DNA of 63,326 nucleotides from a candidate division WOR-3 bacterium (GTDB lineage Bacteria; Hydrothermota; Tepidihabitantia; Tepidihabitantales; Tepidihabitantaceae): NCBI GenBank assembly GCA_026397595.1, contig JAPLUO010000214.1:1-63326 (forward strand), written 5' to 3'. Each line of letters opens with the position of its first letter. Within the stretch, counting starts at the first letter, position 1. Below, one piece after another: positions 9,036 to 57,399 of this stretch. The notes beneath the pieces are model-generated. The model had not been told where the DNA came from. It did not search any database and was given only the letters and a program-made list of their open reading frames with translations. A program made the position numbers and the translations under genes.

Positions 9036-10361
9036 ATGACACGAGTGATTGTCGCGGCGTGCATTATGGGCGGCCTGGCCTCAGCCGTGCCGCTGTATCG
9101 CGATACCCTGCCGAACGGGCTGGCCGTTGTCAGCTACGTGGATCATCGCCTGCCGATGACCGACATCGCGTTTGTCTGCCGGTCCGGCTCGGCCAGCGAT
9201 CCGGAGGGCAAGTGGGGACTCGCCAACGGCACCGTGACCCTGATGACCCGGGGCACGAAGTCGATGACCGCGGATTCGATTGCGAGCATCGTCGAATTCC
9301 TCGGCGCTCAGTTCAACGGCTATGCGGGCAACGACAACAGCATGATCTCCCAGCGCGTTCTGGCCAAGGACCTCGTGACCGGGCTGGACCTGCTGACCGA
9401 CGCTGTGCGCAATCCGAGCTTCGAGGCGAAGGAGGTCGAGCGCGCCCGGGCTGAAGGGATGGCTCAAGTCCGGGAGATGTCCGACTATCCGCTGGCCCGG
9501 GTGATGGTGGACTTCTACCAGACGCTCTTACCCGGTCACCCGTACGCTCACCAGACCATCGGCGACACGGTATCGCTGATGGCGATTACGCGGGAAGACC
9601 TCATCGCCTTTCACAAGACCAACTACGTGCCCAACAACTGCTTCATCGTGGCGGTGGGCGACTTCGACCGGCCCGAGTTGCTGAAGATGATTCAGGCCCG
9701 GTTCGGCGACATGACCCGGGGTGAGGTTACGGAGGTCAAAGCTCCGGACATGCCTTTCCCGGCCAAGCTGCGAGTGAAGCTCATCGCCCGCCCGGACATG
9801 AACCAGACCTACATCATGTTCGGCCATCCCGGCATCGCGTACTCTGATTCAGACCGGCTGGCAACGAACCTGGCCGTCCACATCCTCGGCGGCGGCGCCC
9901 TCGCCTCTCGGATTGGTGATGCCGTGCGCGAAGAGGCCGGCCTGGCGTATGAGGTCCGCACCGTCTTCGACCAGGACCGTCTGCGTGGGGCATTCTGGGC
10001 CTGGGTGCAGACCGCCAAGCCCAAAGAGGCAATCGCCATCATGTTCCGGGAGATCGAGAGAATGCGGAAGGACGGCGCGAAGAAGAGCGAACTCGAAGAG
10101 GCGCAGAACTACTACGCCGGTAGCTACCCGATTCGGTTCAGCTCCAACCAGGGCAAGCTGTACGAAGCGGTCAATATCGAGTTCTACCAGCTCGGTCTGG
10201 ACTGGGTTGACAAGTACCCGGACAAGATCCGCGCCCTGACCCTTGACGAGGTCAACCGGGCCGCGCGCGAGCGCCTGCATCCCGGGCACTACGTTATGGT
10301 CGTCATGGGCAACGTGAAGAAAGAGGACCTTGGACTGAGCGACGTCGAATGGATTGAATAG
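9036..10361 (+). CDS. M16 family peptidase, non-catalytic partner
   Basis: M16 fold similarity throughout, but no HxxEH motif. Start trimmed to the ATG at 9036 (MTRVIVAACIMGGLASA). Confidence 0.8.
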   Translation: MTRVIVAACIMGGLASAVPLYRDTLPNGLAVVSYVDHRLPMTDIAFVCRSGSASDPEGKWGLANGTVTLMTRGTKSMTADSIASIVEFLGAQFNGYAGNDNSMISQRVLAKDLVTGLDLLTDAVRNPSFEAKEVERARAEGMAQVREMSDYPLARVMVDFYQTLLPGHPYAHQTIGDTVSLMAITREDLIAFHKTNYVPNNCFIVAVGDFDRPELLKMIQARFGDMTRGEVTEVKAPDMPFPAKLRVKLIARPDMNQTYIMFGHPGIAYSDSDRLATNLAVHILGGGALASRIGDAVREEAGLAYEVRTVFDQDRLRGAFWAWVQTAKPKEAIAIMFREIERMRKDGAKKSELEEAQNYYAGSYPIRFSSNQGKLYEAVNIEFYQLGLDWVDKYPDKIRALTLDEVNRAARERLHPGHYVMVVMGNVKKEDLGLSDVEWIE

Positions 10362-10625
10362 GCGCGGCGTGATAAGATGGTCGGGTTTCGTACATCGTTA
10401 CTTCGGCGGACTCGTACATCGTCCAACGCGGACCGCGAGGAATGATTCCGGCCAACGATGAACGTTGCAAGGTTTCTGCCGCGCTGTCGGACAGGGGCCG
10501 CCGAGGCCAACCAACGCGGCTGGTCGAGACGATGCGGGGTTCGTACATCGTTGCATCGAAGGACTCGTACATCGTTGAGAGCCTGACGTGAGATGCAGAC
10601 GATGCTGAAGCTGCACCGTGACAGC
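10362..10625 (+). repeat. composite RM-tail repeat R5 interrupted by 'cgtacatcg' word modules
   Basis: GCGCGGCGTGATAAGATGGTCGG ... CTGGTCGAGACGATG ... ATGCAGACGATGCTGAAGCTGCAC, separated by two ~45-bp modules of the form GTTCGTACATCGTT.C.TCG..GGACTCGTACATCG. Confidence 0.75.
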
Positions 10626-10667
10626 TCACGGCCAACGGCTAGCAGTTTCAAGCAGAAGGGGAGTCAG

Positions 10668-11666
10668 ATGAAGAGAAGGACGATTTCGATACTCGGGCTG
10701 TTGACGGCACTGCTAGGCATTGGTTGCAGCGACGCGAACAACCTGCGGATTACCCTCCGCCCGGCCGATACCACGCAGTACTCGGCCAGGGGCGCTCGAA
10801 GGCTCAGGGGCGACTCGAGCAGAATCCAGTTGCGCCTTGACTGGCTCTACGACGAACCGGGCTTTCGTCCGCCCAGTGAGAGGGCGAAGGTCGAGCCCAC
10901 GGACAGCACGATTACGGTCTCGGTCTCGGACACGTCCGGCGCGGCGCGGATCGAGTACCTGGCCTCGACGCGCGGGCTAATCACGTTCCGCCAGATTGCC
11001 GGGGATTCGATTGCAGGGGCGATACTCGACAGTGTTGACGGCTGGCTCCAGTTACACCCCGGGGCGGCCGCCGCAGGCCCGGGCTTGTTGGACAAATCGA
11101 TCTTCTACCGTAGTTACCAGTGCCGGGTCCTTGAACGGGATTATCCACTGGTCAGCAACGTTTTGAAGGCGGTTGATACTGCGGTCTACGATAGCTGGGA
11201 ACCGGCGTTTGGGGTGCTCGACGCAGGCAAGATCGACACGTCTCGAATCCTCTACTTCGTTGCACGGCAGCCGGAGATGTCGAACGCGAGGGGAAGGTTG
11301 GTCGCGTCCGCGGTTGCGCATCGGGGACGTGGCACTCGGCCTCCCAACGCTCCCCCGGTGGCGCGTGAGACCCAACCTTTCCTTGTGGACATGCAACTGT
11401 CCCATGACACGTTCTGGGGCCCCGACCCGGTTCTGAAACTGGCCGAGTTCACGGCTTCTCACGTAGGCCAGCGACTCGCCATGATGCTGGATACGGTTGT
11501 GCTCTCGGCGCCAATGATTCAGGATACGATTCGGGATGGGTCGTTCATGGTTGTAACCCGCGATACCCTGGGAGCCTATGCCCGGGACTTGACGACGATC
11601 TTCCTGAGCGGACCGCTCTACCCGCCGCTGGTCGTGGAGCGGGTCGAACGAGTCGGCGGGAAGTGA
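10668..11666 (+). CDS. lipoprotein with a SecD-head-like C-terminal region
   Basis: Lipobox LLGIGC after the ATG at 10668. The C-terminus ...FTASHVGQRLAMMLDTVVLSAPMIQDTIRDGSFMV resembles the SecD periplasmic head motif. Confidence 0.5.
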   Translation: MKRRTISILGLLTALLGIGCSDANNLRITLRPADTTQYSARGARRLRGDSSRIQLRLDWLYDEPGFRPPSERAKVEPTDSTITVSVSDTSGAARIEYLASTRGLITFRQIAGDSIAGAILDSVDGWLQLHPGAAAAGPGLLDKSIFYRSYQCRVLERDYPLVSNVLKAVDTAVYDSWEPAFGVLDAGKIDTSRILYFVARQPEMSNARGRLVASAVAHRGRGTRPPNAPPVARETQPFLVDMQLSHDTFWGPDPVLKLAEFTASHVGQRLAMMLDTVVLSAPMIQDTIRDGSFMVVTRDTLGAYARDLTTIFLSGPLYPPLVVERVERVGGK

Positions 11667-11684: not shown

Positions 11685-11802
11685 CAAGGCGCGGCGTGAT
11701 CGTATGGTCGGACTGGCGAGAGGATGCGGCCTCGTACAGCGTTGCATCGGAGGAATCGTACATCGCGCGGAGCCACCGCTAGCCGTGAGCCGTAAGCCGA
11801 GG
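11685..11802 (+). repeat. RM-tail repeat R6 plus word tail
   Basis: CAAGGCGCGGCGTGATCGTATGGTCGG..., then a third cgtaca(t/g)cg module, then gccgtgagccgtaagccgag words. Confidence 0.7.
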
Positions 11803-11946
11803 GTCCTCCCCGACGCGCTGGGGTTTCGGCGTGAGCGGTGAAGAGTTGACCGGACCACGTTCGAACCCTATGATTTGAGAGACCGTACGGCCCGTGCGTC
11901 GCATCGGGCCGGCGGAATGACCGCATCAGGAGGCACATTGAAGAAA

Positions 11947-12984
11947 ATGTCAGTATTGGCCGCTTTGCTGCTTCTGGTTGCCATGGCGCCGGCGTTCGAC
12001 CGCGTCGTGGTGGCCGAAGAGCCGTACTCTGAAAGCTGAGGGTCCTGCGCTGCTGCCAGCCGTGCGCTGGATCAGGTCCTTGAGGACTATGCCGGATCCG
12101 CCGTGGGTATCGAGTGGCACATAGTGAACGGCTCCCCATTGTACAGTCCCGAGGGGTGGGCCAAGTGGTGGCAGTATCCGCCGCCGTACGAGGGCGGCTA
12201 CGCCACGCCGTGGTGCTGGATTGACGGTAAGAGCCGCGGTTACCAGCCCAACTTGTGGGCCGGGTACGTAGCGGATGAGTTGCTCGTGCCGACCGAAGTC
12301 AGCTTGGCCCTGTCCGGGGAGTACAACCGATCCGCTCGGACGGGCACGCTCACTGCGGTCATCCACAACGCGGCGACATCGTCCCTGGATGCCGCGCTCC
12401 TCGTTGCCATCACCGAGGACAGCATCTACTACGTCGGCTCGAACGGCGACACCTGGCAGAACCACGTGCTCCGCGACTATGTACCCGACCAGAACGGCAC
12501 CACAATCTCGATTCCGTCGGGCGCGTACGACACGGTGACGATCAACTACGCACTCGACTCGACATGGGTCGAGCATTTCACCAAGGTCGTCGCCTACGTT
12601 CAGTCGTCGTCCACCCAGCCCGATTCGTCCCGGCCCTGCTACCAGGCCCAGGCCGCGCCGGTGCTCTCGTTCGTCGGTACCGCAGAGCCGCGGATTCCCG
12701 AGTCGTTCTACGACAACGCCACGGTCGCGGTCGGGCCGAACCCCTGCCGCGCCAATGCGCAGTTCCGGTTCACCGGCAGGGCCGGCCGAGGCTATCGTCT
12801 CGATATCTACTCGCGTGACGGCCGGCTCGTGCGCGAACTCGCCGGCACGATCAACCCGGGCATGAACACCCTCGCATGGGATCGGACCGACGTTCGTGGG
12901 CGGAAAGTCGCGGGCGGCGTCTACGGCTTCCGCCTGGTTTCGACCGGGACCTCGGCCCCGGGCAAGCTCGTTCTCACGGACTAG
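11947..12984 (+). CDS. candidate selenoprotein: secreted Omp28/thioredoxin-like protein with a T9SS C-terminal sorting domain; TGA at 12037-12039 read as Sec
   Basis: AGGAGG (11928-11933), ATG at 11947 and a signal peptide. An in-frame TGA at codon 31 sits in ...VVVAEEPYSES-U-GSCAAAS.... The frame then stays open for 315 more codons into the ORF-track ORF 12103-12984. The C-terminus is a T9SS/FlgD-Ig-like CTD (...LDIYSRDGRLVRELAG...WDRTDVRGRKVAGGVYGFRL...). Confidence 0.55.
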
Positions 12985-15206: not shown

Positions 15207-18200
15207 CTACAACTTGGTCCGGCGCAGGCGGAGGGAGTTGGTGACCACGTTCACTGAGGAAAGGCCCATCGCCACTTCGGCCATGATGGGATGGAGCAGC
15301 CCGAGCATGGCCAGCGGTATCGCGACCACGTTGTAGGCGAACGCCCAGAAGAGGTTTTGCCTTATCTTCACAAAGGTGGCGCGGGAGAGCTTGATTGCGG
15401 AAACAACACCTGTCAGGCTGCCGCGCACGAGTGTGACGTCCGACGATTCAATGGCCACTTCGGTGCCGGTGCCGATGGCGATGCCGACGTTGGCGGCCTT
15501 CAAGGCCGGCGCGTCGTTGATGCCGTCGCCGACCATGGCCACGCTGCCGAACTCTTTCTGCAGGTCCATCACGACCTGCTGCTTCTGCGCGGGCAGGACT
15601 TCCGCGACCACGCGCTCGATTCCGACTTCGCGGGCAATCGACTCCGCAGTCTCATGGTTGTCGCCGGTCAGCATCACTGGCACGATGCCGAGCGCCTTGA
15701 GGCCGGCAATCGCCTCGGCTGAGTCCGGCTTGACCGTGTCGGCCACGCCGATGACGCCGAGCAGTTTTCCTCCGGCCGCGACGTAGAGCGCACTCCGCGC
15801 CCGCTTCTGGAGTTCTGTCGCCGCATCGGTGAGAGCACGGCAGTCAACCCCGCATTCCTTGAGCAGTTCCTCTTTGCCGACCACCACCTCGACGCCACTC
15901 ACCAGGCCTTTCACACCCAGGCCCGGAACAGCTTGAACTTCCGTTGCCTGCGAGAGAAGTTCTTTGGAGTGCGGCAGCGGAGCTGCCGCCTTTCCGGGCT
16001 CGTCCGTCCGGTTCGGAAAAGCGGGAGCTGCGCTCCCGCACTCCAAGGCCCCGGAAGCACCGCAATCCGGTACGGTCCCCACGATTTCGGTCATGTCCCG
16101 CGCCGCGGCGATTACCGCTCCTGCCAGAGGATGTTCCGACCCCTGTTCCACTGCAGCAGCCATCCTCAGTACATCGGCTCGCTGCACCCCGGCGGCCGGA
16201 ATCACGTCGGTGACCGCGGGCCGGCCCTGCGTGATGGTGCCGGTCTTGTCGAGCACGACCGCGCGGACGTCTTTCAGGGTCTGAATCGCCTCTCCCGAGC
16301 GGAAGAGAATCCCGCGCTCCGCGCCCATGCCGGAGCCGACCATCAAGGCGGTCGGAGTCGCAAGCCCCAAGGCGCACGGGCAGGCAATCACCAACACCGC
16401 GACTCCGGCAAAGAACGCGAGCGATACCACCGGTAATTGCGGGTTGACCCATGGCAGGAACTTCGCGGCCCATACGAGCATCGGCTTGAGGCTCGGCGTC
16501 AGGAAGAACCACGCGGCAAAGGTCACCGCTGCGACCAGCAGGATTACAGGTACGAAACGGGCCGTTACCTTGTCGGCAAACGCCTGAATGGGAATCTTGG
16601 TGCCCTGTGCCTGCTCGACCAGCTTGATAACCTGGGAGAGGAACGTGTCTTTGCCTACACGGGTAGCCTCGACCTTGATGAGGCCGTTGCCGTTCACTGT
16701 CGCGCCGATGACCTCGTCGCCGGTCTTCTTCTCGATCGGCAACGACTCGCCGGTCGCCATTGATTCGTCCACGCTGGTGCTGCCTTCGACAATCCGGCCG
16801 TCGGTGGGAATCTTCTCTCCGGGCCGGACAACCATCACGTTGCCGGGCGCGAGTTGCGCAACCGGCACTTCCTTCTCGACGCCCTCAGCCGTTTGAATCC
16901 GCGCGGTGCGCGCACCGAGGGCGACGAGCTTCTTGATCGCCTGTGAGGCCCGGCCCTTTGCGCGCGCCTCGATGTACCGGCCGGTCAGGAACACGGCCAT
17001 CACCATGCCACCGGCGTCGGCAAAGCTCTTTATCGGCAGCCCGGCCAGCACGGCGACCCCGGAAGCCAGCGCCGCGCTCACGCCGAGCACAATCAGCACG
17101 TCCATCGAAGCGGACCCGGCGCGCACCGAACCCCATGCCCCGCGTATCGTGGTCCATCCCGGGCCGAACAGCACCGCGGTGCAGAAGGCGACGTCAATCC
17201 AGACCATCCCCGGGATGTGGACCGCGTGGAGGCCGTGCAGCACCATCAGCAGCATCGGCACCAGCCCGAGAATCCAGGCCCAGACCAGCCGGCTGGAGGC
17301 ACGGCGAAGTTCGGCCTCGGCATGGTCTTCGCTGCCGGCCGTTTCGTGCCTGACTTCGTAACCGACGTCGGTAACCGCCTTCTCAAGCGCGGCGACCGGC
17401 GACACCTTGGGGTCGAACTCGACGATCGCCTTCTCAATGGCGAAGTTCACTGTCGCTGTCTTTACGCCCGGCAGCCGGTTGAGCGCCTTCTCCACGGTGG
17501 CCACGCAGCTCGCACAGCTCATGCCGCCGACCGCAAGTGTCACGGTCTGGGTCTTCCCCAGTTCCGCCTTGTCGAGCAGCACGGGCTCGGGCAAACCGCT
17601 GTCCGCGATTTGTCCTTCGTCCTTCGTCCTTTGTCTTTCTCCCTGCAAGAACCTCTCCGGTTCGGACTGGAACCGCTTCAGGCAGTTCGGGTTGCAGAAG
17701 TAGAAGGTAGTGCCCTTGTAGTCCCACTTCGCCGCCTCCTGCCCTTCCTGAACCACCATCTTGCACACCGGGTCAATGTGAGATTGCCGATTGACGGTTG
17801 CGGATTGTAGAATGTCCGGACCCTTTGTGTCTTCGAGTCTTGGTGGTAAGGTGCCGTCAGTTCTGACTTCTGACTTCCCCCGTACTTTCGTGTCCTTGTG
17901 TCTTTGTTGTGGGATTCCAGCAGTTCTGACCTCTGGACTCTGCATTCTGACTTCTGCCTTCGGTTGCGCTGCCGGCTGAGGTTTGGGCTTGAGTCCAAGG
18001 TACAGGTCCGGGTCAGCCTTGAACTGCTCAAGGCAGCTTTGGCTGCAGAAGTAGTACGTCTTTCCATTGTACTCCCACTTGCCCGCCTCACGGCCCTCGA
18101 TAACGTGCATTCGGCACACCGGGTCAACGTGCGACTTCGCCAGTCCCTCGGCCACCGGCACGACTTCAGGCGTCTTCTGCTCGACCGGCGGTTTCGTATC

Positions 18201-18356
18201 GAAGTGCGACTCCGGGTTCTGCTGGAACTTGCGGGCGCAGACCTTGGAACAGAAGTAGTACGTTACGCCGTCGTACTCGCGCCGGGCAGCCTCCTGCCCC
18301 TCCACAACTTCCATCTTGCAGACCGGGTCAATGTGTCGAATCGGAACTGTCTTCAT
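15207..18356 (-). CDS. copA: copper-translocating P1B-type ATPase with three N-terminal YHS/TRASH domains and one HMA domain
   Basis: Three copies of DPVC(K/R)M.V...YYFC.. modules. [11 protein letters not shown] motif, CPC (ACPCALG), [13 protein letters not shown]. Confidence 0.95.
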
Positions 18357-22413: not shown

Positions 22414-22513
22414 GCAGTGTCAACGTAGCCCCGCTCTTGCCGAACGCCGGCCATTCCTGTACAGTGTTAGCCGTTTCGAACGCCGACAATCAAATCCACG
22501 CTGTTGAGGAGGC

Positions 22514-24103
22514 TTGATGAAGTTAGCTGTCACGTTGGTAACTCTCTGTGGCATCGTTCTTGCCGCCGGGCCCGCGCTCCCGGTCGGCGTAGTCGACACG
22601 GTCGGCGGGACGACCTTCGACGACCAGAACTCCGGCCCGGCCCTGCAATGGGTCGCCTACGATCCCGCGTACGGGATCCACGTCACGTGGATGTACTCGG
22701 CCTCGGCCTCGAACTGGCCGGACCGCACTATGCGTTACAACTTCTATGATCGGAGCGCGGGTTCATGGAACTGGAACGACCCGGATTTCATGGCGTCGGG
22801 CGTTAACTCCCAGTTCCGCAAGACCGGGTACGGAACCCTTGAACTCGACCCGGCCGACGGCTCCGCTCGCATCGCCTGCCACTACTCTGCGGGCATGCCG
22901 GGCTTCACGCCGGTCGTGGTCGACGATATTGCCCCCGGCGGCGGGGCCTTCGACGAGTGCCTCGGGGCACCGAACCTGACCGACTACTTCCTGCCGGTGA
23001 TCGCCATGCCGCAGGACGGATCCATCAGCCTGCTCCTCATCCGCTTCTCGACGTCGGACAACCTGTACTACACGCGCGCGACGACGTGGTGCAACTGGGA
23101 CGCGCCGGTCTGGTGGGGCGTCACCGGCGGGTTCGGCCACAACATCGTCGCTTCCCACGCCTCGAACAAAGTGCTCGCGACTTGGATGAGCGGCACCAAC
23201 GACAGCCTGGCGCTCGGCTACCGGTTCTCCTCGGACGGCGGTGCCAACTGGGGCGATGCCCGGACCCTGACCCCGCCCTCGGCCTTCGGCGGGGACTCGG
23301 GCACGGTCTGCTTCATCGGTGCGACCGCCATGTTCGACAAAGACGACAACTGGCAACTGGTCACGACACTCGTGCCGCTAGTCGCCGACTCCGCCATGCA
23401 GAACCCGGCCCAACTCTGGCTGTACAACTCCGGCACCAGCGAATGGCATTTCATACACGGCGCCGGCGCGCAAAACCTCTCGGGCGAGATCGGTGGCAAC
23501 GCCGCGTACTGCGGCCGTCCCAGCATCGGCCAGAACCCGGCCGACGGCAGATTCTACGTGGCCTGGGAAGAATTCGACTCCACCAACTTCGAATCCAGCA
23601 CCGGGCAGCTCCGAGCCGACATCTTCCTTTCCGCCTCACTGAACGGAACAGACTGGTCCGACCCGATGCGCCTGACCAATGCCGACGAAACATCCAAGCG
23701 CTTCCCGTTCCTCGCGCGGAACTGCGCGGGCGACTCGCTCGCGGTTGGGTTCGAGCAGGACTCAATCGCCGGTTTCAACTCTAATGGCGTCGGCGCCATC
23801 TCAAACAACCCCATCTGCGTCTGGCACGGCGAGGTCAGCGGCATCTCCGAATCCCGGCCCTCGTCCCCCGCCCCTCGCCCGCTCCTCGCCCCCACCATCA
23901 TCCGCAGCGTCCTGTTCCTGCCCTCCTCCCTCCTCTCGCCTCCCTGCTTACTCCTTTCGCCCGATGGCCGCCGCGTCATGTCCCTTCGCCCCGGCCCCAA
24001 CGACATCAGCCGCCTCAGCCCGGGCGTGTACTTCGTACGCGAGGAGCCACAAGCCTCAAGCCACAAGCCGCAGGCTGTTCGGAAGGTCACGATAGCCCGC
24101 TAG
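22514..24103 (+). CDS. secreted beta-propeller-like protein with a T9SS C-terminal sorting domain
   Basis: Signal peptide, then W/Y-rich repeated blades. CTD ...LLLSPDGRRVMSLRPGPNDISRLSPGVYFVRE...VRKVTIAR. Confidence 0.6.
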   Translation: MMKLAVTLVTLCGIVLAAGPALPVGVVDTVGGTTFDDQNSGPALQWVAYDPAYGIHVTWMYSASASNWPDRTMRYNFYDRSAGSWNWNDPDFMASGVNSQFRKTGYGTLELDPADGSARIACHYSAGMPGFTPVVVDDIAPGGGAFDECLGAPNLTDYFLPVIAMPQDGSISLLLIRFSTSDNLYYTRATTWCNWDAPVWWGVTGGFGHNIVASHASNKVLATWMSGTNDSLALGYRFSSDGGANWGDARTLTPPSAFGGDSGTVCFIGATAMFDKDDNWQLVTTLVPLVADSAMQNPAQLWLYNSGTSEWHFIHGAGAQNLSGEIGGNAAYCGRPSIGQNPADGRFYVAWEEFDSTNFESSTGQLRADIFLSASLNGTDWSDPMRLTNADETSKRFPFLARNCAGDSLAVGFEQDSIAGFNSNGVGAISNNPICVWHGEVSGISESRPSSPAPRPLLAPTIIRSVLFLPSSLLSPPCLLLSPDGRRVMSLRPGPNDISRLSPGVYFVREEPQASSHKPQAVRKVTIAR

Positions 24104-41702: not shown

Positions 41703-43166
41703 CTAGCCGGAGTTGCGCAACTCGCGGATGAGCGAGCCGTCCGGGCCGCGGAGACTGACGACCAGCGGCGGCCGGCCCAGCACGTGCGTCGCGCAGGCGA
41801 AGCACGGGTCATACGCCCGGAAGAACATCTCGACCATGTTCAGCAGCCCGTCGTCCGCCTTGCCGCCGTGGATGAGCTCTTTTGCCGCGTTGCGGATTGA
41901 CTGGCAGATTGCGCCCGCGTTGTTGGTGGTTGCGACAATCAGATTGACCTTCTTGATGAGCCGGTCCTCGGTCAGCCAGTAGTGGTGGTAGAGCGTGCCC
42001 CGCGCCGCCTCGACCACGCCGATTCCCTGCTCCTGCATCCGGTAGTCCATGTTCCGGATGTCGGTGCCGGTGATGTCCGGGTCCCGGGCAAGTTCGAGCG
42101 CGTGCTCGGCCGCGTACAGCAGTTCAATCAATCGAGCCCAGTGGAACGCCAGGGTCGAGTTGACCGGCTTGGTGCCGAAAGTATCGAACATCGTCTTGTA
42201 GTGCACGTTCGCCTTCGGGGTCGCCATGCCGTCAGCGGCATTGAGCCGGCCCAGCGGCCCGACCCGGTAGATGCCCGAGTCCATGCCGTCGGTCAGCCCC
42301 TTGAACCCGACCGCCTTGAGATATGCAATCTTCACGTAGGTCCACTCGTACACGTGCTCGCGGATGTGTTCGAGATAGTCCTTGCCTTCGAACTTCAGGA
42401 ACTCCTTGCCGGCCGGGTCGGTCACCCGCACATTGCCGTCGTAGAAGTTGACGTGGTTGTTTGAGTCCACCATGCCCATGTTGTAGAGGGCGAGGCCGAG
42501 ATTCGGGTTCAAGACGAGTGCCATGTAGTCTTTGTTGGCGAGCACCAAGTCGGCGAAGAGCTTGAGCGTGAACTCCGCGAACCCGACGCACGACTCGGCC
42601 ATCGTTTCGATTTCCTTCCGCTCGGATTCGTTGATGGGCTTGGTCTGGCCGCCAGGGATACCTGAGACCGGATGGGTCGGCTTGCCTCCGAGTATCTCGG
42701 TTATCTTCTGGCCAAAGGCCCGGTGTTTGATGACCTCTTTGGCGACGTCGAGCCCGACCTTCTCGATGACCCCGAGGATGTTGCGCTTGGCCTTGGGCGC
42801 GGTCGGCCCGACCACGAAGTCGGGCGCGGCCAGGAAGTAGAAGTGCAGGATGTGGTCGTAGATGAAGTAACCGGAATAGAGCAGGTCACGGAGCTTGAGC
42901 GCGGTTGGCGTGGGCACCACCCCGAACGCCATGTCCAGCGCCTTGGTCGAGGCATAGTGGTGCGCGACCGGGCAGACCCCGCAGATTCGGCTCGTAAGCT
43001 GGGGCATGTCCTCGGCCTTGCGGCCGACGCAGAACTGCTCGAACCCGCGCAGCTCGGGCACCTGGAAGTACGCGTCGTCAACGTCGCCCTTGTCGTTCAG
43101 GAATATCTCGATCTTGCCGTGGCCTTCAAGCCGGGTAATCGGGTCGATCGTTATCCGGGAACTCAC
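41703..43166 (-). CDS. mvhA: [NiFe] hydrogenase large subunit, group 3c (MvhA/VhuA-like)
   Basis: RLEGHG, RICGVCPVAHH and C-terminal DPCFACATH motifs. Start set at the GTG after GAGGAGG, overlapping the mvhG stop (GTGA). Confidence 0.9.
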   Translation of the reverse strand: MSSRITIDPITRLEGHGKIEIFLNDKGDVDDAYFQVPELRGFEQFCVGRKAEDMPQLTSRICGVCPVAHHYASTKALDMAFGVVPTPTALKLRDLLYSGYFIYDHILHFYFLAAPDFVVGPTAPKAKRNILGVIEKVGLDVAKEVIKHRAFGQKITEILGGKPTHPVSGIPGGQTKPINESERKEIETMAESCVGFAEFTLKLFADLVLANKDYMALVLNPNLGLALYNMGMVDSNNHVNFYDGNVRVTDPAGKEFLKFEGKDYLEHIREHVYEWTYVKIAYLKAVGFKGLTDGMDSGIYRVGPLGRLNAADGMATPKANVHYKTMFDTFGTKPVNSTLAFHWARLIELLYAAEHALELARDPDITGTDIRNMDYRMQEQGIGVVEAARGTLYHHYWLTEDRLIKKVNLIVATTNNAGAICQSIRNAAKELIHGGKADDGLLNMVEMFFRAYDPCFACATHVLGRPPLVVSLRGPDGSLIRELRNSG

Positions 43167-44140
43167 GGCTGCCTCCTCAGGCTGAGCGTAGCCTTGGCCA
43201 GGCTGTACATGTACAGTGTGCCGGCCGGGTCGGCCAGCTTGTTCACGAGCCCGGCGGTATCCTGTTCTGACAGGTCTTTCTCGTCGTCCACCCTCAGGAT
43301 GCCGCTCAGGGCCGAGATCATCTTCGCGCCCTGGTCTGAGACCTCGGGGCTCGGGCCCATGCACCCGGTGCAGGGAGAGTTGCCGTTGATGCACCGGGTC
43401 TGGCACCCGGCTCTCGTAGCCGGGCCCATGCAGACAATGCCCTGCTCAAGGAAACACTTTTCCCGGTCGGCCTGGACTTCCCAGGTGCGCTTGAGGTCGG
43501 GCATTTTCTTGGCCACGTGTTTATTCCGCTCGCACTCGTCGCACAGGGTCTTGGCCGGAGCCAGCACCGTTCCCTTGGGCGGGAGCTTGCCCGAGAATAT
43601 CGCGGTGACGGCATTGAGAATCAGCGGCACCGGCGGCGGGCACCCGGGCAGGTAGTAGTCAACGTCCACGACCTGGTCCAGGGCAAACACCCGGTCGTAG
43701 AACTCAGGCAGGTGCAGCTCGCCCTGCTTCACTTGTAGCCTCGTCTGCGGTCTGGTCCGGTTCGGGTTCTCAGTAGACGCGGTCGACTGGTAGGCGGTCT
43801 CGATGATGTCGGACTTCCGGCAGAGGTTGGCGAGGCCCGGAATCGAGCCCTGATGCGCACAGGCGCCGAACGCGACCAGCGCCTTCGACTTCCGTCGCAT
43901 CAGGTGCGCCATCTCCTCCTGCTCCGAATTCCGCACCGAGCCGTTGAAGAAGCAGACGTCCATGAAGCCGTCCGCCATGGCCCGGACGTCGTCGTACTTG
44001 AAGTCCATCGCTACCGGCCAGAGTACGATGTCGGCGTGTGCCACCACGTCGAGAACCGCCTCGTTGATGTCAAGGACCGCAATCTCGCAGCCGCCGCAGG
44101 ATGCTGCCCAGTAAAACCCGAACTTGAGCTTATCCGCCAT
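43163..44140 (-). CDS. mvhG: [NiFe] hydrogenase small subunit (MvhG-like)
   Basis: ...YWAASCGGCEIAVLD..., ...FGACAHQG..., plus distal FeS cysteine clusters. Confidence 0.9.
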   Translation of the reverse strand: MADKLKFGFYWAASCGGCEIAVLDINEAVLDVVAHADIVLWPVAMDFKYDDVRAMADGFMDVCFFNGSVRNSEQEEMAHLMRRKSKALVAFGACAHQGSIPGLANLCRKSDIIETAYQSTASTENPNRTRPQTRLQVKQGELHLPEFYDRVFALDQVVDVDYYLPGCPPPVPLILNAVTAIFSGKLPPKGTVLAPAKTLCDECERNKHVAKKMPDLKRTWEVQADREKCFLEQGIVCMGPATRAGCQTRCINGNSPCTGCMGPSPEVSDQGAKMISALSGILRVDDEKDLSEQDTAGLVNKLADPAGTLYMYSLAKATLSLRRQP

Positions 44141-44690
44141 CTCTCTGCTCCTGTCCGACCAGTCCGACGTGTCCGACCGGTCCGACTCCGGACAGCGGTC
44201 CCAGACTCCTTATCTGGTCGGTGTACTCCCGCACGACCTGGGCGAACTTCGCACCCTCAGCCGCGGAAATCCACTCGAGCCGGAGCCGTTCCTCTTCGAC
44301 GCCCAGTTGCTGCATCAGCCGCTTGAGCATCATGGTCCGCTTCAGGGTCTTGTAGTTGCCGCTCTGATAGTGGCAGTCGCCCGGATGGCAGCCACCGATG
44401 AAGACTCCGTCCGCGCCGTCGCGGAAAGCCTGGAGCACGAGCGCGGGGTCCACGGAACCCGAGCACATTACCCTTATCGCCCGCATGTTGGTCGGGTACT
44501 GCAGCCGGGAGGTGCCGGCCAGGTCTGCGCCGGCATACGTGCACCAGTTGCACAGGAATCCGACAATCCTCGGTTCAAACACCTGTCCGCTGTCCGTTGT
44601 CCGCACCTCTGACTGCTGACTTCCGACCTCCGACCTCTGACTTTTGACTTTTGACTTTTGACCCTTGACTTCTAACTTCTCCGTTCCCAC
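44130..44690 (-). CDS. mvhD: methyl-viologen-reducing hydrogenase delta subunit (MvhD/FlpD family)
   Basis: IVGFLCNWCTYAGADLAG...MCSGSV...GGCHPGDCHY. The ~35 N-terminal and ~20 C-terminal residues are low-complexity word DNA, so the true start is uncertain. Confidence 0.85.
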   Translation of the reverse strand: MGTEKLEVKGQKSKVKSQRSEVGSQQSEVRTTDSGQVFEPRIVGFLCNWCTYAGADLAGTSRLQYPTNMRAIRVMCSGSVDPALVLQAFRDGADGVFIGGCHPGDCHYQSGNYKTLKRTMMLKRLMQQLGVEEERLRLEWISAAEGAKFAQVVREYTDQIRSLGPLSGVGPVGHVGLVGQEQRDGG

Positions 44691-44693
44691 GAG

Positions 44694-47600
44694 TTACTCC
44701 TTCAGGGCCGGCTCCGGTGCCGCCCGCAAAGCCGCGCGCAGCATTGCCCGGGTTTGCCGGCTGTTGAACCCGAGGTGCGACATCGCGCCGGACGGGCAGG
44801 CTGCGGTGCAGTTGCCGCAGCCTTTGCACAGCGCCTCGTTGACGCGGGAAACGGTCTTGCCGTCTTTTTCAACCAGCCCGGGAGCACCGTACGCGCAGAC
44901 TGAGACGCAAATCCCGCACCCGGCGCAGACAAGGTCGTTCACGACTGCGGTAGTCGCTCCGGCCTCGTACGTGTCCTTGGCGAGAATCGTGGCTGCGCGC
45001 GCCGCAGCAGCCTTGGCCTGGGCCACGGTCTCCTGGATGTTCTTGGGCGAATGAGCCAGGCCGGCCAGAAACACGCCCTCGGTCGCGAAATCCACCGGCC
45101 GCAGTTTGACGTGCGCCTCGAGAAAGAACCCGTCCTCGTTCAGCGGGATTTTCAGCATCCTTGAGACCACGGCCGCGTCGTCGTGCGGGACAATCCCCGA
45201 GGCCAGCACCACGAGGTCCGGGTTGATGCTCAGGGCCGCGCCCAGGATGGAATCCCGGGCCTTGACCACGAGCTTGTCGCCGTCGCGCTCGACCGTCGGC
45301 TTCTCCTCCGGCTCGTAGCGCACGAACACCACGCCTAAGTCTCTGGCCCGCTGGTAGTACTCCTCAAGGAACCCGTACGTCCGGACGTCCCGGCAGAGCA
45401 CGTACACGTTCACCTTCGGGTTGAGCTCTTTCAGCTTCAGCGCGTTCTTCACCGCGTCCTGGCAGCAGACGCGCGAGCAGTACGGCCGTTCCTCGTCGCG
45501 CGAGCCCACGCACTGAATCATCACCACGTTCTTCAGCCGGGCAAGCTGGGTCGCGTCCGCGTCGGCAATCCGCTGCTCCAGTTCGAGCTGGGTGATTACC
45601 CGGTCGTCCTCGCCGTACAGGTACTCCTTGGGCCGCGCCTCCCTGGCTCCGGTCGCCACGACCACGACTCCGTGCTCTACTTCGGGTTCGTAGTCCCGGC
45701 CGGCGAGCTTGATCTTAGTCTTGTAGTTGCCGATGTACCCTTGGATGGACTCCGCGCTCGCGCCCTTATAGACCTTGATACGCGGGTGGGTCTCAACCCG
45801 GGCCATCAGCGAGCCGAGATAGGCCTTGACGTCCGCGCCTTCGAGCGAGTAGCGCAGGTTCCGGGCGTTGCCGCCGAGCTCTTTCTCCCGCTCGATGAGC
45901 GTCACCTCGAACCCCTGCTCGGCAATAGACAGGGCCGAAACCATGCCGGCCAGCCCGCCGCCCAGCACCAGCGCCTTCTGGGTTACCGGCAGGACCACGC
46001 TCTTCAGCGGTTCCAGCAGCCCGGCCTTGGCCACCGCCATCTCGACCAGGCTCTTGGCCTTGGCCGTTGCCCGCTCCGGCTCCCGCATGTGAGTCCAACT
46101 GCACTGGTCCCGGATGTTCGCCATCTCGAACAGGTGCGGGTTCAAGCCCGCCTCGCGCAGCGTCTCCTGGAACAGCGGCTCGTGGGTTCTGGGCGTGCAG
46201 GACGCCACGACCACGCGGTTCAGCTTGTGCTCCTCGATGGCGGTCTTGATCTTATGCTGCGTGTCCTGAGAACAGGTGAACAGGTTCTCGTCCACGTGGA
46301 CCACGTCCGGCAGCGTGCGGGCGAATTCGGCCACGCCCGGCACGTCAACGGTGCTCGCGATGTTGATGCCGCACCGGCACACGAACACGCCGATTCTAGG
46401 GCGCTCGCCGGCCACGCTGCGCTCCGGCGGATAGGTTTTCTGAACGACCTCGGTCCCGCGGGCGTCGTGCATAATCTCGGCCGCGCCGCTTGCCGCCGCC
46501 GATGCCTGGGTCACTGTCTCGGGAATGTCCTTGGGCGCGGCCGCGGCTCCGCACACGAAGATGCCGGGCCTCGTGGTCTCGGTCGGGCAGAACCGCGCGG
46601 TCTGAAAGAACCGGTGCCGGTTCAGCCTGATGCCCAGCTTGTCCGCGAGTTCCGGCGCATCTGCGGGCGGGCTGAACCCGACCGACAGCACGACCATGTC
46701 GAACTCCTCGGTCTTCATCCCGCCGTTGCCCTCATTGGCGTAGTGCACGACGAGGTCGCCCGACTCCGGCCTCTCGTCCACCTTTCCCACCCGGGCCCGG
46801 ACAAACCTGACCCCCTGCTCCTTCTGCGCGCGCTCATAGTACCGGTCAAAATCCTTGCCGTGCGCCCGGATGTCCATGTAGAAGATGGTCGGCTCGATGT
46901 CGCGCGCGTGCTCCTTGGCGATGACCGCCTCTTTGATGCCGTACATGCAGCAGACCGAAGAGCAGTAGCTGTTGCCGGCTTCGTCGTCTCGGGACCCGAC
47001 GCACTGGACCCAGGCAATCCGCTTCGGGGCTTTCCCGTCGCCCGGGCGCTGGAGATGCCCGCCGAACGGCCCGGACGCGGCCAGAATGCGCTCGAACTGA
47101 ATGCTGGTGACTACGTTGGGGTACATGCCGAACCCGAACTCGTATTTCAGCCGCGGATTGTACTTCTCCGCCCCGTTCGCGAGGATGATTGCGCCAACGC
47201 CGATTTCCCGGTGCTGCGCCGGCATCTCGTGCACGACGGCATGCGCCTCGCAGACCCGCTCGCACTCCAGGCACTCTGAGCAGACTCCGCACTCAAGGCA
47301 GCGGCTCGCCTCAGCCAGCGCTTGCTCTTCGCTCAAGCCGAGCTCGCACTCCGCGAAATTCCTGACCCGCTTGCCGGCCGCCAGCACCGGCATCTGCTGC
47401 CGGGGCTTCTTCTCAACGAACTCCGGCAGTTCCTTCTCCGGCAATTCCTCGTTCGTTCGTCGTTCCTCGTCCTTTGTTCTTCGTCCTTCGCGCAGGTCCT
47501 CGCCCGCCAGATAGCGGCTGATGGAAACCGCGGCCTCGTTCCCGTGATGCACCGCCTCGACAATCGAAGCCGGCCCGCTCACAATGTCCCCGCCCGCAAA

Positions 47601-49358
47601 GACACCCGGAACGCTCGTCTCCAGCGTCACCGGGTCCGCCTCAATCCGACCCCGGGTCTGCTTGAGCGTCTCAAGACCTTCGAGCTGCGACCGCTGGCCG
47701 ATGGCGACGATGACCGTGTCGGCCGGGATGGTCTCACTTGCGCACTCCTTGTCGTACACCGGTGCGAAGCTGCCGTCGTCCGAGTACACCGAGGTACAGC
47801 GCATTGTCTCCACGCCGGTAACCCGGCCGTTCTTCGTGACGATTCTCTTCGGCCCGAGGCAGCAGCGGACCACAACGCCTTCCTCCTCGGCCGCCTCAAT
47901 CTCCCAGGCGTGCGCCGGCATCCGGTCCCGCGAATCGAGGTTGCGCGTCTCCAGGCACACCATGCTCACCTCTTCCGCGCCCAGACGGGCTGCGGTCCGC
48001 GCGCAGTCTACTGCCACGTTCCCGCCGCCGATAACCACGACCTTCCGGCCCAATCCCTCAATCTTGGCCCCGCGCTTCACCTGTCGCAGGAAATCCAGAC
48101 CCAGCAGCACGCGTGTCTTTGTTCCTCGTTCCTCGTTCTTCGTTCTTCCGTCTTCTCCTGGCAGCTCGGCCCCGGCCTGGCATCCGACCGCGACATACAC
48201 GGCGTCGTGGCGCTTCTTGAGTTCGTCAATCGTCACGTCACGGCCGACTCTCGTTCCCCGCTTCAACTCAATCCCGGCCTCAAGAATCCGTTCAATGTCC
48301 TGCATCGCGCACGCTTTGGGGATGCGGTACTCAGGCAGGCAGGACACGAGCATCCCGCCCGGCTCGCCGGCCTCGTCATACACCGTCACCGCATAGCCCT
48401 GGTCGCGCAGCCGCAACGCGCAAGTGAGGCCCGAGGGCCCCGCGCCCACGACGCCGACCGTTTTCTTGCTGGTTATCTCCGCCTTGGCGCTCTTCGCGGC
48501 TTCCCCTCCGCTCCTCTCCGCCCCTTCGTCATTTCCCCTTTCCCCTTCTCCCTTGGCACTCTTGGCGTCCTTGGCGGTTTCCCCTCCGGCGTTCTCCGTT
48601 CCTCGTTCTTCGTACTCCCTGTCCGCGATGAACCGCTTAATCGCCGCAATCGCTATCGGCTCATCGTACTCACCGCGCCGGCAGTTGGCCTCGCACGGAT
48701 GATGGCATACCCGGCCGCATATCGAGACGAACGGATTGTGCTTCCGGACCAGTTCGTACGCTTCGTGGTACTTCTTCTCACGCACCAGCGCCACATAGCC
48801 CTGGGCGTGAACCCCGGCCGGGCACGACACCTGGCACGCGGGCCGCGCCTTCTTGTCAATGGAGAACGCACTCGGGTAGGCCTGCGCGAAGAGGCGGTAT
48901 GCCGCCCGCCGGTCCACAAGCTGCTCGTCGAACTTCGACGGCAGCTTGACCGGGCAGACCTTCTCGCACTCCCCACACCCGGTGCACTTCGCCGGGTCGA
49001 CGAACCGCGGTCGCTTCAGCACCTTGACCCGGAAGTCGCCGGCCTCGCCGGTTACCGCTTCGATTTCCGCGCCCGACAACAGTTCGATGTTAAAGTGCCG
49101 GCCGCACTCCACCAGTTTCGGGGACATGATGCACATCGCGCAGTCATTGGTCGGAAACGTCTTGTCGAGCTGGGCCATGATGCCGCCGATTGCCGGCCCG
49201 CGCTCGAGCAGATAGACCTTGAACCCCGCGTTCGCCAGGTCGAGCGACGACTGGATGCCCGCGATTCCCGCGCCGACGACCAGCACCGCTCCGGGCTTGC
49301 CGCCTCGGCCTGACCTCTCCGTTCCGCCGGCCGTCATTGGAACTTGCTCCTTCGTCAT
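44694..49358 (-). CDS. HdrL-like giant fusion: an HdrA module split by a GltD/NfnB-like NAD(P)H oxidoreductase insert, followed by a second HdrA module
   Basis: The first HdrA module has an FAD fold (VVGAGIAGIQ) and TFPTNDCAMCI. The GltD-like insert has SCPAG...ICGRVCHHPCE.NCRRG and VVGAGPSGL...GGGNVAVDCART...AGGD. The first module continues with QCVGSRD...YCSSVCC. The second module has GVFVCRCG...ASCTPRTHE...QCVGSRD...CSRVCC and terminal ferredoxin motifs. Confidence 0.85.
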   Translation of the reverse strand: MTKEQVPMTAGGTERSGRGGKPGAVLVVGAGIAGIQSSLDLANAGFKVYLLERGPAIGGIMAQLDKTFPTNDCAMCIMSPKLVECGRHFNIELLSGAEIEAVTGEAGDFRVKVLKRPRFVDPAKCTGCGECEKVCPVKLPSKFDEQLVDRRAAYRLFAQAYPSAFSIDKKARPACQVSCPAGVHAQGYVALVREKKYHEAYELVRKHNPFVSICGRVCHHPCEANCRRGEYDEPIAIAAIKRFIADREYEERGTENAGGETAKDAKSAKGEGERGNDEGAERSGGEAAKSAKAEITSKKTVGVVGAGPSGLTCALRLRDQGYAVTVYDEAGEPGGMLVSCLPEYRIPKACAMQDIERILEAGIELKRGTRVGRDVTIDELKKRHDAVYVAVGCQAGAELPGEDGRTKNEERGTKTRVLLGLDFLRQVKRGAKIEGLGRKVVVIGGGNVAVDCARTAARLGAEEVSMVCLETRNLDSRDRMPAHAWEIEAAEEEGVVVRCCLGPKRIVTKNGRVTGVETMRCTSVYSDDGSFAPVYDKECASETIPADTVIVAIGQRSQLEGLETLKQTRGRIEADPVTLETSVPGVFAGGDIVSGPASIVEAVHHGNEAAVSISRYLAGEDLREGRRTKDEERRTNEELPEKELPEFVEKKPRQQMPVLAAGKRVRNFAECELGLSEEQALAEASRCLECGVCSECLECERVCEAHAVVHEMPAQHREIGVGAIILANGAEKYNPRLKYEFGFGMYPNVVTSIQFERILAASGPFGGHLQRPGDGKAPKRIAWVQCVGSRDDEAGNSYCSSVCCMYGIKEAVIAKEHARDIEPTIFYMDIRAHGKDFDRYYERAQKEQGVRFVRARVGKVDERPESGDLVVHYANEGNGGMKTEEFDMVVLSVGFSPPADAPELADKLGIRLNRHRFFQTARFCPTETTRPGIFVCGAAAAPKDIPETVTQASAAASGAAEIMHDARGTEVVQKTYPPERSVAGERPRIGVFVCRCGINIASTVDVPGVAEFARTLPDVVHVDENLFTCSQDTQHKIKTAIEEHKLNRVVVASCTPRTHEPLFQETLREAGLNPHLFEMANIRDQCSWTHMREPERATAKAKSLVEMAVAKAGLLEPLKSVVLPVTQKALVLGGGLAGMVSALSIAEQGFEVTLIEREKELGGNARNLRYSLEGADVKAYLGSLMARVETHPRIKVYKGASAESIQGYIGNYKTKIKLAGRDYEPEVEHGVVVVATGAREARPKEYLYGEDDRVITQLELEQRIADADATQLARLKNVVMIQCVGSRDEERPYCSRVCCQDAVKNALKLKELNPKVNVYVLCRDVRTYGFLEEYYQRARDLGVVFVRYEPEEKPTVERDGDKLVVKARDSILGAALSINPDLVVLASGIVPHDDAAVVSRMLKIPLNEDGFFLEAHVKLRPVDFATEGVFLAGLAHSPKNIQETVAQAKAAAARAATILAKDTYEAGATTAVVNDLVCAGCGICVSVCAYGAPGLVEKDGKTVSRVNEALCKGCGNCTAACPSGAMSHLGFNSRQTRAMLRAALRAAPEPALKE

Positions 49359-49368
49359 TGCCGCGCCC

Positions 49369-50505: not shown

Positions 50506-50512
50506 CGTCGGC

Positions 50513-50983
50513 TCACGCCTTGGCGGCAATCCGCTTGTCCACCATCGCCTTGATCTTCTCGCCCTGCTTCTTTTCCGGGTTCAGCGCGTACTTGATGATG
50601 TTGCAGCGCAGGTCCTGGGTAAACCGGTCCAGGTCGTCAATCATCGCAAGCCGTTCCTTGGGCGCGTGGCCTTCCTTGACCGCCAGCTTGCGCAGCACCT
50701 CCATCACGTCGGCGAACTTGACGTTCTGCGGGCAGCGGGCATAGCAGGTGTAGCAGCGGGCGCACAGCCAGATGGTGTCCGAGGACAACACCTGCTTGCG
50801 CAGGCCGAGCACGGCCATCCGGATGATTTTGCGCGGGTCGTACTCCTCCATCACCTCCGCGACCGGGCAACTGGCGGTGCAGGTCCCGCAGGAGAAGCAG
50901 CGCTTGAAATTCTCGGCTCCCGGCTGGCTCGCAATCTCGTGTTTGAACTGGGAGTCGGATTCACTGAGGTTGATTTCTTCCAT
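50513..50983 (-). CDS. hdrC: HdrC-like 2x[4Fe-4S] protein
   Basis: CFSCGTCTASCP and CARCYTCYARCP motifs in an HdrC-sized protein. Confidence 0.7.
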   Translation of the reverse strand: MEEINLSESDSQFKHEIASQPGAENFKRCFSCGTCTASCPVAEVMEEYDPRKIIRMAVLGLRKQVLSSDTIWLCARCYTCYARCPQNVKFADVMEVLRKLAVKEGHAPKERLAMIDDLDRFTQDLRCNIIKYALNPEKKQGEKIKAMVDKRIAAKA

Positions 50984-50995
50984 TTTGGCTCCTCT

Positions 50996-57347: not shown

Positions 57348-57353
57348 GACACC

Positions 57354-57382
57354 AGATTAGCAACCCCTCAACCGCATGTCAA
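57354..57382 (-). promoter_or_regulatory. sigma70-like promoter abutting the hdrA start codon (a leaderless transcript is plausible)
   Basis: On the minus strand: TTGACA (57382-57377), 17-nt spacer, TAATCT (57359-57354), then 6 nt to the ATG at 57347. No Shine-Dalgarno sequence is visible. Confidence 0.45.
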
Positions 57383-57399
57383 GCTTGGCAGCTAGCGAA

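Follow-up and report, generated by a model that had tools for sequence, protein, structure and literature searches.

An in-frame UGA in an Omp28-like gene of a candidate division WOR-3 bacterium very likely encodes selenocysteine in a secreted thioredoxin-fold protein

Proteins of the Dsb families act outside the cytoplasm. Their predicted selenoprotein forms (DsbA-like, DsbG-like and thiol:disulfide interchange proteins) have a thioredoxin fold and carry selenocysteine (Sec) first in the redox motif (PMC13188914). Another family, predicted in 2008, is the marine GOS_C, in which 74 Sec forms were found beside 312 Cys homologues (Zhang & Gladyshev 2008, PMC2398784). It corresponds to the NCBIfam model NF045500, 'Omp28-related selenoprotein', which a 2026 review equates with 'hypothetical protein GOS_C', giving a UxxC motif and one Sec (PMC13188914). 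A third relevant protein, HBP35 of Porphyromonas gingivalis, has a thioredoxin-like motif, both cysteines of which are needed for thioredoxin activity in vitro; it also binds haemin, and growth on scarce haemin requires it (PMC2907840). HBP35 is reported to be a type IX secretion system (T9SS) cargo, anchored at the surface via its C-terminal domain (CTD) (PMC2907840; PMC3120885). Here, we describe an Omp28-like gene with an in-frame TGA from a candidate division WOR-3 bacterium (assembly GCA_026397595.1, contig JAPLUO010000214.1) and compare it with these systems. The window analyzed is the entire contig (63,326 bp), the part of this genome that the work covered.

The gene lies on the forward strand. 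A Shine–Dalgarno (SD) sequence, AGGAGG, occupies positions 11928–11933, with GGxGG-type sequences at the equivalent place in homologues, and is followed by an ATG at 11947. From there the frame is open to a TAG at 12982–12984, except for one stop, a TGA at 12037–12039 (...RVVVAEEPYSES-TGA-GSCAAASRALDQ, the part after the TGA starting GSCAAAS). An earlier reading of the letters alone, hereafter the original prediction, had listed this SD, ATG, single TGA and open frame, and the sequence is as it described. GenBank annotates the locus from a GTG at 12103 as a protein of 293 amino acids (aa), the same as in the ORF (open reading frame) track. Counted from ATG 11947, the read-through product has 345 aa. 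We consider it very likely that the locus is one gene for a secreted 345-aa selenoprotein, with UGA 12037 decoded as Sec via a hairpin at 12056–12070, rather than two products, a 30-aa peptide and a leaderless protein of 293 aa.

The full coding sequence would extend from 11938 or 11947 to 12984, the start being either TTG 11938 (MKKMSV...) or ATG 11947 (MSV...). The in-frame TTG lies 4 nt past the SD and 33 codons before the TGA, which is the modal spacing in a family whose start codons fall 30–37 codons ahead of the TGA. A start there would yield MKKMSVLAALLLL... (MKKMSVLAA...), with the basic n-region found in all homologues, and it may be used in place of ATG 11947. The predicted signal peptide, MSVLAALLLLVAMAPA (11947–11994), has a likely cleavage site between APA and FD, placed by eye; a hydrophobic core followed by AxA is found in all homologues. 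Judged by eye, the features of a signal peptide (basic n-region given the TTG start, hydrophobic core, AxA) are kept across the family. A consensus scan also found a promoter-like site, TTGACC-17-TATGAT (11846–11874, forward strand), about 70 nt 5' of the start codon, with 10 of 12 consensus matches (one such site found versus 0.2 expected).

To follow the gene beyond this contig, 80 metagenomic loci were collected with the family alignment, and the DNA upstream of each match was translated. Every locus with enough upstream DNA showed the same plan: an SD-like GGxGG, a start codon (ATG, GTG or TTG), a hydrophobic stretch of about 20 residues with AxA at its end, and after it [DEQ]R[VC]VV.E[ED].Y.E., the in-frame TGA and ..C. 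A regular expression allowing either a stop or Cys at the RVVVxEExYxEx-U-xxC column found TGA in 86 of 86 subfamily copies and Cys in none. The 85 genes besides the one in the window stand at 32–70% protein identity, and in all 86 a signal peptide lies upstream of the TGA, with conservation running through the TGA into it. The original prediction had allowed for orthologs that begin at the position of 12103 with a signal peptide of their own, or for upstream DNA that is not conserved as coding. What the alignment shows is the opposite: the upstream part is conserved as coding, and the signal peptide precedes the TGA throughout. With the read-through product as query, a protein search gave 74 clusters covering 54–90% of it, none more than 90%. 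Most of them begin a few residues past the TGA column (VLDQI..., MLDQI..., VASSSLLDTI...), shorter ones begin further downstream, and the orphaned N-termini were called as 30–33-aa mini-ORFs by gene callers. Tandem paralogue pairs occur on eight contigs (L002, L003, L009, L016, L021, L074, L079 and L082), and both copies of each pair carry the in-frame TGA, the signal peptide and the hairpin.

These data bear on two rival explanations. If the TGA were an ordinary stop, the locus would hold a 30-aa peptide and a separate, leaderless 293-aa Omp28-like protein from GTG 12103. That is the reading of every gene caller and of the GenBank record, and elsewhere in the window UGA does act as a normal stop. 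But residue conservation crosses the TGA, homologues are called from starts spread across several positions just past it, and an in-frame TGA in every one of the 86 copies is inexplicable for two independent ORFs. Moreover, the second product would carry a sorting domain for secretion but lack a signal peptide, full-length Cys homologues place the N-terminal part in the same thioredoxin domain, and a SECIS-like hairpin (for selenocysteine insertion sequence) is conserved downstream. We therefore regard an ordinary stop as very improbable. The other explanation, a sequencing or assembly error or a pseudogene, draws on the fact that the source is a single metagenome-assembled contig. Yet two independent assemblies (L083 and L084) contain the identical DNA with its TGA, so the TGA is not an assembly error, and the same codon recurs in the 85 other genes. 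This explanation is effectively refuted, with a probability close to nil.

More distant relatives reveal what takes the place of the TGA. A profile search of 1.84 billion representative proteins gave 158 relatives at E ≤ 1e-30, among them full-length proteins of 345–357 aa with a signal peptide, a CxxC at the Sec column and the same downstream domains. The read-through protein aligns end to end with these Cys-type homologues. The contexts include TNTGCPPCG (P0151), TNTNCIDCP (P0145), ATWCGCCP (P0156) and ATGCSYCR (P0218), and CxxC is found at this column also in P0152, P0169, P0174, P0186 and P0194. At the Sec position, a Saprospiraceae Omp28-like protein (L001) has EEFTGVQCVNC; it was the one distant Omp28 relative, and the only match, in a scan of contigs that used just the truncated window protein. 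The claim of the original prediction that the TGA sits on the first Cys of CxxC is thus borne out by P0151, P0145, P0156, P0218 and L001. Pairing of Sec and Cys homologues is a classical criterion for selenoproteins. On these comparisons, the reading of UGA 12037 as a conserved sense position is strongly supported, and UGA 12037–12039 would specify Sec at the first position of U-G-S-C, a residue that aligns with the GOS_C Sec and, in Cys-type homologues and thioredoxins, with the first Cys of CxxC. The putative resolving Cys of UxxC, TGC at 12046–12048, does not vary in alignments A2 and A5. As none of the 86 genes is a Cys orthologue, the subfamily appears obligately Sec-dependent in its clade.

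We compared the window protein with a GOS_C sequence from Dataset S2 of PMC2398784, which scores 336.7 bits on NF045500. The two align U on U (SRVVMVEDFTGLN-U-PYCPAAS...VEWH for GOS_C and DRVVVAEEPYSES-U-GSCAAAS...IEWH for the window protein; BLASTP E 9e-7), with ~33% identity over the first 55 residues. Residues 7–70 map to NF045500 profile positions 27–86, in line with Sec 53 of GOS_C, and alignment A5 agrees. Common to both proteins are a signal peptide, the pattern RVVxVE[ED]....-U-xxC-xAAS...D......EWH, a thioredoxin-like fold and an Omp28-like region, and in both cases the database entries are N-terminally truncated at the TGA. They differ in that GOS_C relatives end in TSP3-type repeats without a T9SS sorting domain, whereas a T9SS-type CTD is predicted for the window subfamily, and in that the GOS_C family has Sec and Cys forms, whereas the window subfamily has TGA in every copy. 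The GOS_C relatives P0075–P0090 are stored in truncated form (73–78% coverage) and bear TSP3 repeats plus a dockerin-like tail. On NF045500 the read-through protein scores 45.7 bits, below the cut-off of 200. The window protein thus represents a divergent subfamily within a selenoprotein superfamily that is already known, outside the curated equivalog. The novelty that the original prediction assumed does not stand, an Omp28-related UxxC selenoprotein family (GOS_C/NF045500) having already been described. The Omp28 family itself (PF11551; NF033782) is also related: the beta-sandwich of the window protein passes the Pfam threshold, and Bacteroidota relatives such as L001 have EEFTGxxCxxC at the corresponding place. 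Omp28 proteins, however, are lipoproteins with Cys, whereas the window protein has a predicted Sec and a type-I-like signal peptide without a lipobox; it scores 46.8 bits against 150 on NF033782 (lipoprotein Omp28).

Downstream of the TGA lies a hairpin with a stem formed by 12056–12060 and 12066–12070 and a loop at 12061–12065 (CGUGC; G12062, U12063). Pairing, RNAalifold, codon constraint and fit to the bacterial SECIS (bSECIS) model mark it as a candidate SECIS core. In alignment A2, which holds 73 distinct sequences and is ungapped from the TGA, positions 20–24 (CCAGC) pair with 30–34 (GCUGG) in 98.9% of cells, and RNAalifold independently predicts this helix and nothing else. Pair 24–30, C-G in 65 sequences, has changed to U-A in 6 others, which makes one compensatory pair. 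The 5-nt loop has the form N-G-U-N-N, with G in 73 of 73 sequences and the following base U in 66 and G in 7. The hairpin starts 16 nt after the UGA, with a spacing of 21 nt from UGA to loop.

The strongest argument for the hairpin is constraint at the codon level. Its five codons have third-position entropies of 0–0.46 bit and amino-acid entropies of up to 2.4 bits, and neighbouring codons have third-position entropies of 1.6–2.0 bits. The Ala/Ser/Thr codon is NCC and the Ser codon AGY in all 73 sequences (40% background in each case), and the Leu codon is CTG in 70 of 71 (37% background). The codon after the AGY Ser is NGT whichever residue it encodes (Ser, Arg, Gly or Cys). Since the third positions are nearly frozen while the encoded residues vary, the RNA is more constrained than the protein. 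Published values for the bSECISearch model are a loop of 3–9 nt, an upper stem of 4–16 bp, a UGA-to-loop spacing of 16–37 nt, a G within the first two positions of the loop with U or G after it, and a minimum free energy (MFE) of ≤ -7.5 kcal/mol (PMC13188914, Figure 2). Compared by hand with these quoted values, the element falls within all of them (5-nt loop, 5-bp stem, G-U/G, 21-nt spacing), the hairpin alone, a 17-mer, folding at -7.6 kcal/mol. The pattern CCAGYNGTNNRCTGG occurs once in the window versus 0.02 expected. That the conserved 5-bp hairpin with its 5-nt NGUNN loop has the shape of a bacterial SECIS core is strongly supported. Relative to the bacterial SECIS consensus, the element is minimal, with a 5-bp stem, no conserved lower stem and no match to a curated Rfam SECIS.

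The original prediction had drawn a two-tier hairpin here and asked whether it co-varies. Its fold is the MFE structure of the 48-nt stretch. The upper tier held up across the family, with the pairing, the bSECIS fit and the one compensatory pair in 6 sequences noted above. The lower tier did not. As a conserved element, the lower stem (12041–12047/12073–12079) was rejected: it is paired in 50.5% of cells across the family, and its three best pairs are explained by Cys and Gln codons. The lower stem is window-specific.

A few close relatives have lost Sec and did not acquire Cys in its place. P0106 (L087, 501–1529) has CAG (Gln) at the Sec column and keeps the CCAGC/GCUGG stem, with a CAAAC loop that lacks GU. 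P0142 (L086, 386–1147) has GTT (Val) there, and its hairpin has decayed; the Ala-Ser residues are kept and only their codons have changed. In P0225, a member of the Cys-type clade, SSPS replaces CxxC. Evidently, the protein scaffold survives without the redox pair in these three. The hairpin motif was absent from the six Cys-type genes examined. P0106, P0142 and the Cys-type controls support a role for the hairpin, as cases that are few and not independent of protein divergence.

Several observations weigh against Sec decoding via this hairpin. No SECIS family in Rfam matched at the gathering threshold, and at E values up to 10 there were chance matches only; lack of an Rfam match is usual for bacterial SECIS elements. 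The 48–64-nt stretch of the window folds no better than shuffled sequences (z = -0.03 and -0.64). The stem is short and near-invariant, and its covariation amounts to one pair in 6 sequences, probably reflecting one or a few events. In L029, L041 and L082_7929, a hairpin shifted by 3 nt seems to be used, an assignment made by eye with which the MFE structures only partly agreed. Furthermore, selB, selC and selD are not on the 63-kb contig, where the sole tRNA is tRNA-Ser(GGA), with no tRNA-Sec; the scan of window ORFs likewise found neither selB nor selD.

That selB, selC and selD were not seen on the contig would fit read-through of UGA without Sec-tRNA(Sec), either by near-cognate insertion of Trp or Cys or by a lineage-specific reassignment. 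Read-through without Sec occurs in some bacteria. On the other side, UGA is the normal terminator of many other window ORFs, which points to a standard genetic code. The contig also carries selA, a gene specific to the Sec pathway: the original prediction had placed it in the window, and the ORF at 57571–59028 (reverse strand) matches TIGR00474, L-seryl-tRNA(Sec) selenium transferase, over its full length at 575.7 bits versus a cut-off of 267.9. The UGA sits on the redox Cys column of CxxC, the distance from it to a hairpin of the bSECIS type is right, and the homologous GOS_C family is an accepted predicted selenoprotein. We thus hold non-Sec read-through to be highly unlikely, and decoding as Sec remains the preferred reading. 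Every test run among those proposed for refuting the original prediction favoured a secreted selenoprotein.

What kind of protein would result? Profile matches to 2axo and thioredoxins, together with the model of P0151, indicate a thioredoxin-like domain at about residues 18–115 (11998–12291). An Omp28 (PF11551) beta-sandwich follows at residues 100–239 (12244–12663; Pfam 49.4 bits versus 34.9), all-beta in the AlphaFold2 model with a predicted local distance difference test (pLDDT) score >90. The protein ends in a predicted beta-sandwich sorting domain, T9SS type-A-like/FlgD_ig-like (12697–12981), indicated by a match to the PorU CTD and by the TIGR04183 scores of homologues; Pfam gave a sub-threshold FlgD_ig match at the C-terminus. 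All three are encoded on the forward strand. When a profile of the N-terminal 100 residues was searched against PDB sequences, 2axo (DUF1223, thioredoxin-like) was matched at E 4e-5 and dozens of thioredoxins at E 1e-3 to 0.04. In this search, the C/U-G-S-C of the family superposes on the C-G-P-C of thioredoxin, and hence Sec would hold the position of the attacking cysteine.

Structure models were made of two proteins. For the part of the window protein after the TGA, AlphaFold2 (pLDDT 88.2) gave a helix two residues after GSC and then two beta-sandwiches. The model of the full-length Cys-type P0151, a protein 30% identical to the window protein, reached pLDDT 86.8 and shows a canonical thioredoxin fold, its CPPC lying at the alpha1 N-cap, again followed by two sandwiches (topology E26-32, C36..C39, H39-52, E57-63, H72-87, E95-98, H108-119). 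The models support a mature protein with a thioredoxin fold, in which Sec would lie ~14 residues from the new N-terminus, at the alpha1 N-cap, with Cys three residues on. The best PDB match of the P0151 model is HBP35 (5y1a; 345 columns, E 2.5e-14, TM 0.57/0.62), with 2axo second. HBP35 (5y1a), of similar length at 344 aa, has the build predicted for the window protein: signal peptide, CxxC-type thioredoxin domain, beta-sandwich and T9SS CTD. It uses Cys where the window protein would have Sec, and likeness in sequence is marginal (E 0.17 with the family profile, none with P0151 alone).

Judging from the signal peptide, we have high confidence that the product would exit the cytoplasm. Its subsequent handling by T9SS is somewhat favoured, on family-level evidence. 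The CTD of the window protein matches the PorU CTD at 20.3 bits (E 9e-5) and also matches 6za2, the PorU CTD structure. The CTDs of homologues P0013, P0031 and P0056 reach 34–38 bits on TIGR04183 versus a cut-off of 23, and PF18962 is recorded for many homologues. The T9SS C-terminal domain named in the original prediction therefore holds for these homologues, while the window protein's own score falls short: 13.8 bits (profile positions 2–64 of 72), below 23. Dsb-type UxxC selenoproteins are periplasmic, and none has been described with an outer-membrane sorting domain such as is predicted for the window protein. The putative T9SS-type sorting domain and HBP35-like overall fold are the new points relative to the known family.

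Besides that sub-threshold score, other findings count against T9SS export of an HBP35-like protein. No T9SS components (sov, porK/L/M/N, porU or porV) were seen among the window ORFs scanned, and no literature placing T9SS in WOR-3 was found. The structural match to HBP35 was made for P0151, a protein 30% identical to the window protein, and not for the window protein itself. In a Foldseek search, the post-TGA window model gave generic tandem Ig-like matches (TM ~0.25), with 5y1a outside the top 50. Also, no neighbour genes of the window were found in the homologous loci (tblastn), and hence no conserved pointer to a substrate or reductant.

Taken together, a mechanism can be proposed. As in bacterial Sec decoding generally, SelB with Sec-tRNA(Sec) would bind the hairpin at 12056–12070 and insert Sec, the charged tRNA being made by the product of selA on the same contig. 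The signal peptide would route the unfolded chain through the Sec translocon, and the C-terminal beta-sandwich, a T9SS type-A sorting domain in homologues, would direct it across the outer membrane to the surface or the medium. There, Sec could act as a more reactive nucleophile than Cys in an extracytoplasmic selenol/thiol-disulfide oxidoreductase built like HBP35.

The activity could be of another kind. In a real selenoprotein, U-x-x-C might bind a surface ligand (metal, haem, chalcogen/polysulfide), as HBP35 binds haemin, instead of exchanging disulfides. The best structural relative, HBP35, is indeed a haemin binder needed for growth at scarce haemin, and no DsbD/CcdA-type supplier of reductant was seen near the gene. 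Relatives without one or both redox residues persist (Gln in P0106, Val in P0142, SSPS in P0225), so the scaffold is useful beyond redox chemistry. However, HBP35 also shows thioredoxin activity that depends on its Cys residues, and Sec coincides exactly with the nucleophilic position in thioredoxin CGPC. Further, Redoxin/AhpC-TSA genes accompany homologues of both types, directly beside Cys-type ones (L085, L091) and 6 kb from a Sec-type pair (L082). Ligand binding in place of disulfide exchange is possible and, in our assessment, rather unlikely. We lean toward a selenol/thiol-disulfide oxidoreductase, rather than, or besides, an HBP35-like ligand binder.

The neighbours just mentioned are Redoxin/AhpC-TSA/thioredoxin-family genes at 1–504 of L085 and 1726–2044 of L091, and a Redoxin/AhpC-TSA-type gene at 1943–2485 of L082. 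DUF6029 genes recur in L082 (2460–3977) and L089 (1–366). Any of these may be a redox partner, and the Redoxin/AhpC-TSA adjacency hints at a thiol relay. The window itself has no Redoxin-type neighbour, and nothing like DsbD/CcdA was seen near the gene.

Other features of the window can be placed around the selenoprotein gene. Directly 3' of it lies a gene for an NADPH-dependent FMN reductase-like protein (PF03358; 13049–13681, forward strand) with a Cys-rich insert, CTACRSCRETGRC; the protein is cytoplasmic and resembles iron-sulfur flavoproteins. A 1049-aa P-type ATPase (15207–18356, reverse strand) has three N-terminal YHS domains and an HMA domain, with no TGA involved; YHS-domain proteins include a known selenoprotein family (PMC13188914, table). 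A hidden Markov model built from the family's CTD gave a single weak extra match in the window (E 0.0026), to residues 482–518, the C-terminus, of a 531-aa ORF without an NCBIfam family (22508–24103, forward strand). On this match, the ORF may encode a second cargo protein.

Upstream, a repeat element of 34–41 nt, TCGTACAnCGTT.C.TCG..GGA.TCGTACATCG, contains TCGTACATCG as a direct repeat within itself. Three occurrences were found on the forward strand (10388–10421, 10541–10574 and 11732–11765) versus 0 expected; 10360–10384 and 11687–11711 were noted along with these. It is confined to two intergenic regions, upstream of a gene with a SecDF_P1_head domain (10593–11666) and upstream of the selenoprotein gene. 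It might serve both genes as a common operator or promoter element, or represent a small REP-like (repetitive extragenic palindromic) repeat.

At the far end of the window, selA adjoins a cluster (41703–59028, reverse strand) with two giant HdrA-like flavoprotein/ferredoxin fusions, at 44694–49358 (1554 aa) and 54276–57347 (1023 aa), and the large subunit of a NiFe(Se)-hydrogenase (41703–43406). Complexes of the HdrA-like/NiFe(Se)-hydrogenase type in other organisms often hold Sec subunits. In a crude check of this cluster, no interrupted frame stood out. A crude scan for other TGA-interrupted frames in the window gave nothing convincing, and it also missed the real case.

Literature searches on selenoprotein or selenocysteine together with T9SS found nothing relevant, the sole co-occurrence being an unrelated rabbit-diet study; nothing relevant was found for Omp28 with selenoprotein or for WOR-3 with selenoprotein. 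Tentatively, and with slightly more doubt than confidence, we suggest that the protein is the first recognised selenoprotein cargo of a T9SS, exposing Sec on the surface or in released form in an anaerobic WOR-3 bacterium and its relatives, for HBP35-like redox chemistry or ligand capture (haem, metals, polysulfides).

The work soundly corrects an annotation and modestly extends a selenoprotein family already known, with a T9SS/HBP35 link worth following. At least 74 database clusters, the GenBank entry of this contig and the GOS_C relatives are annotated as truncated, leaderless proteins and can be corrected. The current NCBIfam selenoprotein model misses this branch and can be extended, and the mini-SECIS CCAGC-NGUNN-GCUGG, 16 nt past the UGA, is a clean signature for finding more members. 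With this subfamily, the extracytoplasmic UxxC selenoproteins gain a clade that is widespread in freshwater, sediment and the subsurface. The structural link between Omp28/GOS_C and HBP35, the one characterised T9SS-displayed thioredoxin-like protein, offers a testable functional analogy for GOS_C. If the protein is a T9SS cargo, Sec-containing chains would pass both the Sec translocon and T9SS, and selenium would be spent on an extracellular protein. Confirmation of T9SS export would mean that selenoproteins are deployed on the bacterial cell surface.

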